Source of the DNA: Bacteriovoracaceae bacterium | GTDB taxonomy: Bacteria > Bdellovibrionota > Bacteriovoracia > Bacteriovoracales > Bacteriovoracaceae | Length of the DNA: 54,288 nucleotides | Assembly: GCA_041586955.1 (NCBI GenBank) | Contig: JBFGZE010000012.1 | Coordinates: 1-54,288 of the forward strand | Reading direction: 5' to 3' | Shown here: piece after piece, positions 19,347 through 21,545 of the stretch | Position numbering within the stretch: position 1 is the first letter of the stretch | How the letters are laid out: every line of letters starts with the position of its first letter | Notes under the pieces: generated by a model | The model's input: only the letters and a program-made list of their open reading frames with translations | Told to the model about the DNA's origin: nothing | Database searches by the model: none | Program-made: the position numbers and the translations under genes

Positions 19347-21545
19347 ATGAGAGTCGCCAGACATTTTAATATTCTATTATTTTTAAGTATATTCTTAAGC
19401 GCCTGTTCGACAATTGGTCCGGCAGATCGTTATCCCGCTGCGGAGAAGCTACCTGATGATTGTTTCCAGCTAGTGGATGATATTTTGGGACTTCGTTATG
19501 AAAGATCCAAAGCAAACTTTCATAAGGCGTTATCTAAGTCCTATTCTGAAGAGGAACAAGAGGTTATTCATAATAATATTGATGCCCTTCTTTTTATTGA
19601 TCATGAGCATGCTCTACCTCAATTACTATCGATTTATTCTTCAGACTCCTCCTCTCTTACTAATGCTTCAATATATACCAGATATACTCAGAATTCAGAT
19701 GTTAATTTACCGTTTCGAAATTTCTTGCAAACCACAGAGTTTCTCTTTGAAAAGAAACCCCAAATTAGCGTTGATACTTTAAAACAACTTCATGCCCGTT
19801 TGATGGCCGGGGGAGTTGATGGAGTTTCTCCCAATGCTTTAGGGGAAATTCGCGGTGAGGCCATTATTGGTAGTGTTCCCTCAGTTGCTCCTATTAATGC
19901 TAAGGTTTACGGAGAGCTCAAAGCAAATCCCTACATTTCTGTGAGAGATTTAAAATTTATTGGTCGAAACCGCTATATCGGCCATATCGGTTATCCACGA
20001 GCTGATCTTTTTACACCTGAAGTCGGAAAGATTATTGGCAAGAAGGATCCTGAACTTTTTAAAGAAATCACCGCTATCGCCAAACAATCGGAAAAAGAAC
20101 CAACCAGTTACGATTCTCCAGAATTTTATTCGGCCACTAAAAGAATGATTTCCATTCTAACAGATGATTTGTTTACATGGTTTGAAGAGGAGATGACAAA
20201 TATTGGCCGTGTTCGAAATATCTCTAGCTTTAAGAAATTTGTTAAGATTGTCACTCTTTTTCAACGACATTTAATTTCAATTCATCCCTTTGTCGATGGC
20301 AATGGCCGGACAATTCGCCAATTTGCCCTCTATTATCCCTTTTGGAGACAAGGTCTTCCTGCTCCTCGTCTGATGAACCCTAATTCCGACCTTTATCAAC
20401 CATTGGATGATTGGATGGATCAGATTATAGGGGGAGTGGAGAATTCTCACCATCTTTATTTGGACTTAACCCAGAGGATTAAAAATGATCTTCCCTTAGG
20501 GACTAGTCCTGAGCTTTTAATCCCCCGTATCCCGCATCGTGCTCTTATCGACCTTCGGAAAGAGGCCCACAAAAAGTTGGATGAGGATTATAAATTAGTT
20601 GATATTGATAGCTCCCAATTTGCCTATTTCTTTTTACAAAAAATGAAAAATGATCATTCCGCCTATACCAGCTATCTCAAAGAACCAGAGATTGAAATTA
20701 AAAAGGTCATTAACGAGTATCGAGATTTTTTTAAACACGCCAATATAGTTTATGACCGAAAAAAAACTGGTCGTGAATTTTTGGCCTTAGAATTTGCCGA
20801 TATAAGTTTTATGGATTCTTTTGCCAATAAATCCTATCTCGATGTTGATAAATGGCAATTTAAAATGGATCGCTGGTATGAGAATATTATTCAATGGCGT
20901 GGATTGGCCTCAAAAAGCAAAGAAAGAAGTGAGGAAGACATATTAGGAATGTTTAAAAACTTAGATAAAAATTTAGTCTCTAATAATGTTGCTCGCAATA
21001 TATTTAGTCATACCAATCCCGATCATATCAAAGCATTGGTCATGAAAGAGTTTAAAAAATATAATTATGACTTACAATTTGGCGGCCTAGCAGAAATGGC
21101 AACGCACCATTCTGAGACCGGCCCAAAGTATGGAATGAGTTATGGTTATTCCACCTCCGCCAAGCGAGCTGTTGGAAAGGCCTTTGCCATGGGGGCCATG
21201 GTTGTCGCCGAATATGGGAAGCAACAAAGGTTTCAACACCTTCTTAAGTCACGCTTGCTGGTTGGAATGCGGAAGGCGGGTAAGGATGTCGACCTTTCTC
21301 GTCTCAAGCAAATGCGCCCTCAATTTTCCTATCCATACCCCAGACGAAAAGAAATTATGGGGATTGCTGCGGCGGACCCCGATTCAATTATGTTTATTCA
21401 GATGATTGATGAGAAAGGTGAAGTCACTTTAAGTTACGTTCGCCACCCTAAGAAACCGAACGAGATTTGGGTTTATAAAAAAGAGGTTAGTGAGGTGGGA
21501 GATAAGATGCCACCCCCTGATCGAAAAGTTGTCCTGAATGATTAA
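19347..21545 (+). CDS. Exported lipoprotein with Fic domain and putative C-terminal ADP-ribosyltransferase-like domain
   Basis: Lipobox LSAC; HPFVDGNGRTIR at 20283-20318; WRG (R518), YSTS (S602-S604), PYPRRKEI (E669). Confidence 0.8.
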   Translation: MRVARHFNILLFLSIFLSACSTIGPADRYPAAEKLPDDCFQLVDDILGLRYERSKANFHKALSKSYSEEEQEVIHNNIDALLFIDHEHALPQLLSIYSSDSSSLTNASIYTRYTQNSDVNLPFRNFLQTTEFLFEKKPQISVDTLKQLHARLMAGGVDGVSPNALGEIRGEAIIGSVPSVAPINAKVYGELKANPYISVRDLKFIGRNRYIGHIGYPRADLFTPEVGKIIGKKDPELFKEITAIAKQSEKEPTSYDSPEFYSATKRMISILTDDLFTWFEEEMTNIGRVRNISSFKKFVKIVTLFQRHLISIHPFVDGNGRTIRQFALYYPFWRQGLPAPRLMNPNSDLYQPLDDWMDQIIGGVENSHHLYLDLTQRIKNDLPLGTSPELLIPRIPHRALIDLRKEAHKKLDEDYKLVDIDSSQFAYFFLQKMKNDHSAYTSYLKEPEIEIKKVINEYRDFFKHANIVYDRKKTGREFLALEFADISFMDSFANKSYLDVDKWQFKMDRWYENIIQWRGLASKSKERSEEDILGMFKNLDKNLVSNNVARNIFSHTNPDHIKALVMKEFKKYNYDLQFGGLAEMATHHSETGPKYGMSYGYSTSAKRAVGKAFAMGAMVVAEYGKQQRFQHLLKSRLLVGMRKAGKDVDLSRLKQMRPQFSYPYPRRKEIMGIAAADPDSIMFIQMIDEKGEVTLSYVRHPKKPNEIWVYKKEVSEVGDKMPPPDRKVVLND

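Follow-up and report, generated by a model that had tools for sequence, protein, structure and literature searches.

A predicted Fic–ADP-ribosyltransferase lipoprotein of Halobacteriovorax-like predators, a candidate prey effector

Positions 19347..21545 (+ strand) of a 54,288-nucleotide stretch of Bacteriovoracaceae DNA (assembly GCA_041586955.1, contig JBFGZE010000012.1; the window below is this whole stretch) encode a predicted lipoprotein of 732 residues. In this protein a Fic domain is joined to a C-terminal domain resembling the R-S-E class of ADP-ribosyltransferases (ARTs), and an original prediction from the sequence had proposed that one exported polypeptide may carry two modifying activities. 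Fic and ART domains form, to judge from aligned sequences, a fixed cassette over a large protein family and occur mostly in exported proteins. We lean somewhat towards the reading in which the protein is an exported, lipid-anchored two-enzyme toxin, displayed on the envelope or released, which would act upon gaining access to the cytoplasmic contents of prey. The copy in the window carries an unusual arginine in its ART signature, and the alternatives that this residue and other features raise are weighed where they arise.

Fold of the C-terminal domain

The C-terminal domain covers residues 440-732 (20664..21542, + strand), a region without annotation in Pfam or NCBIfam. The structure prediction and Foldseek search that had been suggested as a check of its fold were carried out. 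The best of five models, built from a 32-sequence alignment, has a predicted local distance difference test score (pLDDT) of 89.7 and a predicted template modelling score (pTM) of 0.88, the pLDDT of the series being 89.7, 89.2, 83.1, 72.0 and 64.9. Foldseek retrieved 360 matches from the PDB at E<=10, four of them at E<=1e-3, and all of the matches listed (39 entries from ranks 1-50, duplicates collapsed) are ADP-ribosyltransferases of the R-S-E clade. The Xenorhabdus Rhs toxins TreX and TreTu lead (E 4.1e-4 to 6.9e-4, template modelling (TM) score normalised to the target 0.62-0.64, best probability 1.00) and are followed by pertussis toxin S1 (E 1.6e-3), EcPltA, cholera toxin A1 (2a5g_B, E 6.2e-3), LT, MTX, typhoid toxin, pierisin and scabin. 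An Atlas search with residues 440-732 gave a best score of 0.89, to unnamed clusters; a cluster at rank 25 (score 0.85), 20% of whose members carry ADPrib_exo_Tox, is a lead only.

The model places the diagnostic residues of the R-S-E class as follows. R518 lies inside a strand (model residues 72-83), S602-S604 stand at the end of strand 161-165 and are followed by helix 168-175, and strand 230-234 opens with E669, after the loop of lowest confidence, which occupies the place of the ARTT loop. As modelled, arginine, STS and glutamate each occupy the strand or strand end where an ART would have them (topology: PMC7764402). The C-terminal domain has, in its predicted structure, the R-S-E fold and signature yet is a separate, so far unannotated family, whose activity is predicted.

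Catalytic motifs and the arginine at position 667

A search with the full-length protein found 31 relatives, the closest alignment comprising 30 sequences; the C-terminal domain, used as query in an exhaustive search, retrieved 120 cluster representatives at E<=1e-3, 81 of them at E<=1e-30. The 148 family proteins collected were aligned to a family model, and the denominators below differ by motif position. The original prediction had read three motifs in the order R-S-E in this region and had asked whether homologues conserve them; all three are found at the residues it named, and homologues do conserve them. The arginine element W517-R518-G519 (within QWRG; 20895..20903, +) has R518 in 126/131 sequences. 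The STS element S602-T603-S604 (within YGYSTS; 21150..21158, +) has S602 in 127, T603 in 120 and S604 in 124 of 133. The third element, R667-K668-E669 (within PRRKEIMG; 21345..21353, +), corresponds to [Q/E]-x-E and has E669 in 133/137. WRG, STS and E669 are invariant in the 30-sequence alignment, and within the protein conservation is highest in the C-terminal domain. Neither a fold other than that of an ART nor a lack of motif conservation, both named beforehand as grounds for refutation, was observed.

The [QE]-x-E signature of mono-ADP-ribosyltransferase (mART) toxins is tied to the choice of target (PMC7764402). Its first position, 667 here, was compared across 135 sequences and holds glutamine in 120, glutamate in 11, proline in two, aspartate in one and arginine in one; where the triad is intact (118 proteins), there are 107 glutamines, 10 glutamates and one arginine. 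The alternation of Gln and Glu at this position is regarded as the strongest sequence-level argument for a working ART in the family, as predicted. The sole arginine is that of the window protein (codon CGA, 21345-21347), so that [QE]-x-E is absent there. This substitution two residues before the glutamate had been pointed out in the original prediction, and comparison with the family makes the caveat sharper than it was first put.

The transferase reaction is said to depend on the residue that opens the motif (PMC11606950; PMC7764402). An arginine at this site may mean that ADP-ribose transfer by this copy is altered, reduced to NAD+ hydrolysis, or lost. We consider it rather unlikely, if still worth serious attention, that the ART arm in this organism is a pseudo-enzyme or solely an NAD+ glycohydrolase, which would deplete NAD+ or serve the Fic domain as a binding or targeting module. 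The unique status of R667 among the intact triads speaks for such a loss of function, as do other family members in which catalytic motifs decayed independently while the scaffold was kept: among the 110 proteins spanning both regions, nine have a degenerate Fic motif and an intact ART, two have a degenerate ART and an intact Fic motif, and two have lost both. However, R518, STS and E669 are intact in the window protein along with the conserved core (KAFAMGAMV, LLKSR, KDVDL), which argues for continued selection, and an arginine at 667 could redirect specificity instead of abolishing activity. A base-call error at this codon, which is covered by one contig, is also possible. The Fic arm of this copy looks intact in sequence.

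The Fic half

Ahead of the ART domain lie a helical N-terminal region and a Fic domain with a beta-hairpin insert (residues ~36-439, Cys39 included; 19452..20663, +), as delimited by the model, Foldseek and Pfam. An intact Fic motif at H313 had been claimed and is borne out: the motif HPFVDGNGRTIR spans residues 313-324 (H313-R324; 20283..20318, +) and follows the pattern HxFx[DE]GNGRxxR, and Pfam Fic (PF02661) is matched over residues 280-329 with 33.9 bits against a gathering cut-off of 24 (E 5.8e-8). The H, F, G, N, G, R and R of the motif are invariant among the 30 close relatives; across the family H313 is kept in 106, N319 in 109, R321 in 106 and R324 in 108 of 115 sequences. A model of residues 21-445 (52-sequence alignment) reached pLDDT 91.1 and pTM 0.89, with five models between 89.4 and 91.1. 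Foldseek assigned it 24 PDB matches at E<=1e-3, and those listed are all Fic or Fic-fold proteins, headed by Legionella AnkX (4ber_A, E 1.4e-5, query-normalised TM 0.43) and FICD (6i7k, E 5e-5). AnkX is also the best PDB match of the protein by sequence (E 7e-4), in an alignment that extends past the motif into the QGLP...PN.DLY stretch.

The inhibitory motif [ST]xxxE[GN] is absent from the 732 residues and no small gene neighbours the coding sequence; the protein falls into none of the auto-inhibited Fic classes I-III. It shares the Fic fold, and the lack of this motif, with secreted Fic effectors that have no inhibitory helix, AnkX in particular; FICD/HYPE is a further relative by fold. An AnkX-type phosphocholine transferase is not recognised, as the protein reaches 15.7 bits with the NCBIfam model for AnkX, whose cut-off is 1400, and matches no ankyrin family of Pfam. 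The window protein differs from AnkX further in R324, which closes the canonical motif where the aligned AnkX residue is not arginine, in the absence of ankyrin repeats, in the fused C-terminal ART and in Sec/lipoprotein export in place of a type IV signal. The Fic half is read as a constitutively competent, effector-type Fic enzyme, for which AMP transfer would be the default expectation; the likeness to AnkX leaves other nucleotide-diphosphate donors possible.

Association of the two domains across the family

Proteins spanning both regions number 110, and 97 of them, giants of 1,391-2,349 residues included, retain both motif sets intact. Among proteins of at least 870 residues, Pfam Fic directly precedes the ART domain (E<=1e-3) in 17/17, three of them below the gathering score. 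The longest members are 15 giants of 1,391-2,349 residues and a Peredibacter protein of 1,465 residues (giants within P0037-P0088). They align to the entire Fic-ART module and carry in addition a mutually homologous N-terminal extension of 500-750 residues with 29-46% identity. This extension has no Pfam match, and its PDB sequence matches are no better than E 0.076; the Atlas leads obtained for it (MafB, PT-TG, EndoU and Tle1-like) all score below 0.9.

A few distant members of 244-361 residues (P0142 and P0146 of 359-361 residues; also P0121) apparently consist of a signal peptide and an ART-like domain alone, with E-x-E at the third motif. Their existence suggests that the ART domain can work without Fic.

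Export signal

The coding sequence is an uninterrupted open reading frame (ORF) from an ATG start, stop codon included in the coordinates, and its 732 residues correspond to full length by comparison with 29 homologues of 712-775 residues. Lipoboxes follow the consensus [LVI][ASTVI][GAS]C. The predicted lipoprotein signal peptide covers residues 1-20 (19347..19406, +), where the N-terminus MRVARHFNILLFLSIFLSAC closes with L17-S18-A19-C20, the lipobox that had been noted from the start; its cysteine is kept in 39 of the 43 family proteins that have a residue at that column. The positively charged MRVARH, the hydrophobic FNILLFLSIFL and L-S-A-C20 together make up the layout of a predicted signal peptidase II substrate. 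In Escherichia coli, an aspartate after the lipid-modified cysteine leads to retention in the inner membrane. Here serine occupies this position, and consequently nothing after Cys20 points to inner-membrane retention. Residues 21-35 (19407..19451, +), which follow the lipid-modified cysteine, are modelled with pLDDT below 50 (model residues 1-15) and probably form a flexible tether.

A crude hydrophobicity heuristic gave a signal-like N-terminus for 95 and a lipobox-like N-terminus for 41 of the 111 family proteins of at least 600 residues. Export by the lipoprotein signal is supported by the predicted signal and by its conservation in the family. Long members without such a signal include P0091, P0093, P0096, P0098, P0101, P0112 and P0114, several of which carry HPL in place of HPF in their Fic motif; they may use another delivery route or act in the cytoplasm.

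Cys39 (19461-19463) is the single cysteine of the mature protein besides Cys20 and is kept in 57/64 aligned sequences. In members with ordinary signal peptides its equivalent lies a few residues past the predicted cleavage site. This lone cysteine might form an intermolecular disulfide or be a site of acylation or processing.

Proposed mode of action

Judging from MetK, encoded in the same window and 80-86% identical to proteins of Halobacteriovorax, Halobacteriovoraceae, Bacteriovoracaceae and Bdellovibrionota, the organism is among the Halobacteriovorax-like predators. The named homologues of the Fic-ART protein come from Halobacteriovorax sp. HLS, an Oligoflexia metagenome-assembled genome (MAG), a Bdellovibrio sp. 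MAG and Peredibacter sp. HCB2-198, and these lineages are Bdellovibrio-like predators.

In the favoured reading, the signal peptide and the lipobox cysteine Cys20 would route the protein to the outer membrane or surface of the predator. Both domains need co-substrates of the cytoplasm, ATP and NAD+, though the protein is exported, and action inside the prey would follow from this. During invasion the protein would reach a compartment that contains both, most likely the prey cytoplasm or the leaking bdelloplast. There the Fic domain would modify hydroxyl side chains with AMP, or a related phospho-moiety, taken from a nucleotide. The ART domain would use NAD+ to ADP-ribosylate a target, presumably not arginine, since the family has Q-x-E. 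If the C3, pertussis and scabin/pierisin types are a guide, candidate targets include asparagine, cysteine or a nucleic acid base (partly after PMC7764402, partly from general knowledge). Combined, the modifications would disable functions of the prey.

Two precedents bear on this scheme. TreX is an antibacterial R-S-ExE ART (PMC11606950). SitA toxins, which are outer-membrane lipoproteins, can reach the cytoplasm of another cell, so that an entry route for a lipid-anchored toxin exists in principle (PMC8546572).

Several observations tell against the proposed toxin. The first concerns R667, which stands in place of Gln/Glu at a position reported as necessary for transfer (PMC11606950). The E-values of the ART fold matches are moderate (best ~4e-4), with a query-normalised TM of ~0.3, and a viral fold library returned no match to the C-terminal domain at E<=1e-3. 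The region had been called otherwise unassigned, and sequence comparison agrees: phmmer with the C-terminal 293 residues gave no PDB match at E<=10, a 15-sequence profile of the ART domain alone retrieved only two designed helical-repeat proteins from the PDB (E 0.36 and 0.83), no Pfam family matched the 293 residues at E<=1, and no NCBIfam ART model exceeded its threshold. Cholera toxin A1, a segment of which the original prediction had aligned by eye with the third motif, was matched by fold alone. Pfam Scabin-like appears solely below threshold, in 2/15 and 4/46 members, with a best E of 0.004. The mART expression [YFL]-R-x(27,60)-[YF]-x-S-T-[SQT]-x(32,78)-[QE]-x-E (PMC7764402) does not match the window protein (P0001) and matches 2 of the 148 family proteins. 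The window protein is missed because tryptophan precedes the arginine, the distance from arginine to serine is 84, an aromatic residue directly precedes STS, and arginine occupies the Q/E site. In the family, the distance from the arginine to the first serine is 72-101 residues (median 84) and is occupied by a helical insert. In favour of the motifs, a relaxed expression matched 90/148 real sequences against 16/2,960 shuffled ones, more than chance would give. As for export, 16 of the 111 long family members lack a signal-like N-terminus by the crude heuristic. In the genome, the gene has no secretion-system, immunity or chaperone gene beside it, its surroundings show no synteny with Peredibacter, and nothing in the window indicates how an outer-membrane lipoprotein would enter prey.

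The two domains could also have stayed together for a coupled chemistry on one substrate instead of two separate attacks, which we hold to be very improbable. For instance, the ART domain would install ADP-ribose and the Fic domain, as an enzyme acting on donors that contain pyrophosphate, would use or remodel the pyrophosphate of this ADP-ribose, or the order would be reversed. Such a reaction would resemble the multi-step ADP-ribose/phosphoribose chemistry of the SidE type in Legionella. If true, it would amount to an undescribed modification or cross-link used by predators for shutting down their prey.

Comparison with known systems

The R-S-E ART toxins compared here are TreX/TreTu/Tre1, pertussis S1, cholera A1/LT and scabin/pierisin. 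The family domain shares their predicted fold, including the arginine on a strand, the STS that closes a strand ahead of a helix, and the catalytic-type glutamate after a flexible loop, and it alternates Gln and Glu two residues before this glutamate in keeping with [QE]-x-E (PMC7764402). It has no detectable sequence similarity to them, carries tryptophan where they have Tyr, Phe or Leu before the arginine, exceeds the span from arginine to serine of the published expression (27-60 plus 2) and has an aromatic residue directly before STS. The family domain is fused to Fic, apart from the few distant members that apparently consist of the ART alone. The window protein carries a Sec/lipoprotein signal, whereas the known toxins are Rhs or type VI secretion system (T6SS) cargo or AB5 toxins; no immunity or B-subunit gene lies near its gene, and it has an arginine at the Q/E site.

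Multi-enzyme effectors include ExoS/ExoT, with a GTPase-activating protein (GAP) domain and an ART; the SidE family, with a deubiquitinase (DUB), an ART and a phosphodiesterase (PDE); and IbpA, with two Fic domains and a protease. They use type III, IV or V secretion and have eukaryotic targets. The window protein likewise combines at least two catalytic modules in one polypeptide proposed to be delivered, and differs from them in the combination of Fic and ART, in the type of secretion and in the eukaryotic targeting of these effectors.

SitA of myxobacteria has an N-terminal lipobox in common with the window protein, followed by an intermediate region and a C-terminal toxin that acts in the cytoplasm, and provides a possible model for entry (PMC8546572). 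SitA proteins have polymorphic nuclease C-termini and cognate immunity genes and depend on TraAB, whereas the toxin part of the Fic-ART protein is constant and enzymatically different and has no adjacent immunity gene. A further reading takes the protein for something other than a predation factor: a weapon aimed at kin or competitors, as polymorphic toxins and SitA are, or a means of fending off eukaryotic grazers. We regard this as quite improbable. Lipoprotein toxins delivered by outer-membrane exchange do exist (PMC8546572; PMC5562445), and the top ART fold matches are interbacterial Rhs toxins; AnkX and FICD, the best fold matches of the Fic half, and pertussis toxin and cholera toxin, which come next for the ART, act on eukaryotic proteins. 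The Atlas leads for the extension of the giants, below 0.9 without exception, name polymorphic-toxin families. However, no immunity gene adjoins the gene in the window or in Peredibacter, and conservation peaks at the C-terminus, the opposite of what characterises polymorphic toxins (PMC3482391). Neither a variable C-terminus on a constant N-terminus nor an adjacent immunity gene, the marks of a polymorphic toxin, was found. Moreover, all named family members, a minority of the family, come from obligately predatory lineages.

A role in anti-phage defence was rejected. PADLOC gave only generic motif matches, SoFic and PDC-S04, and the protein is exported.

Genomic context

The gene upstream (18419-19312) encodes a beta-lactamase/PBP4B-like protein without an obvious signal peptide and ends 34 nucleotides (nt) before the Fic-ART gene. 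Downstream, after 64 intergenic nt, lies mpl (21610-23052), encoding an Mpl-type murein peptide ligase (259 bits against an equivalog cut-off of 388.7). A terminator-like hairpin (A7-GGTCC, 7-nt loop, GGACC-T7; 21564..21594, no strand assigned, apparently bidirectional) begins 19 nt past the stop codon. Folding of 21546-21605 gave -23.4 kcal/mol with a z-score of -5.33, and none of 200 shuffled sequences was as stable; the consensus scan missed this hairpin, and its 30 promoter-like sites against 22.3 expected are uninformative. With a gap of 34 nt upstream and a hairpin within the 64 nt downstream, the flanks are too short to contain a small antitoxin or immunity gene. None adjoins the Fic-ART gene, in agreement with the original prediction, and the ORFs of at least 60 residues inside it are shadow frames only.

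A genome scan found at least 600 stretches matching the Fic motif pattern, 90 of which were relatives; 58 loci were kept, 57 of them being generic Fic. Among the matches listed, the only true full-length relative is the Peredibacter homologue (locus L001, 5763-10160), whose neighbours are a photolyase and succinate dehydrogenase genes, with no adjacent immunity gene. Since generic Fic matches swamped the scan, the analysis of synteny is a comparison with one other genome. Both genes flanking the Fic-ART gene in the window are related to peptidoglycan turnover, an arrangement that is not conserved in Peredibacter.

This neighbourhood bears on whether the protein is translocated at all. An envelope-resident enzyme might modify the predator's own periplasmic or surface proteins, or the prey envelope from outside, with nucleotides leaked by dying prey. 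Anchoring as a lipoprotein implies retention at a membrane, neither translocation machinery nor an immunity gene is adjacent, and the flanking genes are of the peptidoglycan-turnover kind. Against this stand the different neighbourhood in Peredibacter and the terminator that separates the Fic-ART gene from mpl. ATP and NAD+ do not normally occur outside the cytoplasm, and the closest relatives by fold are without exception toxins or effectors acting in the cytoplasm of a target. Confinement to the envelope appears unlikely on this evidence, and we retain the reading of a toxin that acts on prey contents.

Horizontal acquisition was considered and rejected, as the GC content of the gene (0.394) equals that of the window (0.396). 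The window contains no paralogue.

Other features of the window were recorded. An ORF at 23018-24679, which overlaps the end of mpl by 35 nt, encodes a basic protein of 553 residues with a signal-like N-terminus and no Pfam or meaningful NCBIfam match. Another ORF, at 6610-10806, encodes 1,398 residues with matches to Big_7, right-handed beta-helix and NosD and weak matches to CBM96; by these domains it may be a surface or secreted protein that binds or degrades polysaccharides. The MetK ORF as listed (24776-25957) has a TTG start and 393 residues, 5-10 more than most relatives (383-388 residues), and the true start is probably further downstream. No Rfam family reached its gathering score anywhere in the 54-kb window. 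Nearly all large ORFs lie on the + strand, and the GC skew is positive throughout.

Novelty and significance

We know of no described combination of Fic and ART. A literature search, with most subscription journals outside its reach, found no description of a Fic+ART architecture or of a secreted ART or Fic toxin of Bdellovibrio-like organisms. In current databases the homologues are labelled only 'Fic family protein' or 'hypothetical protein'. The excerpts of a survey of polymorphic toxins list DOC/Fic and R-S-E ART toxins separately and do not mention Bdellovibrio (PMC3482391). Neither fold is novel in itself; what is new, within the reach of that search, is the family of ARTs, its obligate fusion to Fic and the Sec/lipoprotein export of this fusion in predators. 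The family adds to the R-S-E ARTs a clade that is undetectable by sequence, absent from Pfam and missed by the published mART expression.

The rapid stop of prey physiology brought about by Bdellovibrio-like predators is, to our knowledge, largely unexplained at the level of named effectors. The Fic-ART family provides a concrete candidate for such a prey effector, being conserved, exported as predicted and equipped with two domains of catalytic toxin type, with clear predicted catalytic residues (H313 and E669) and with co-substrates, ATP and NAD+, that are easily followed.

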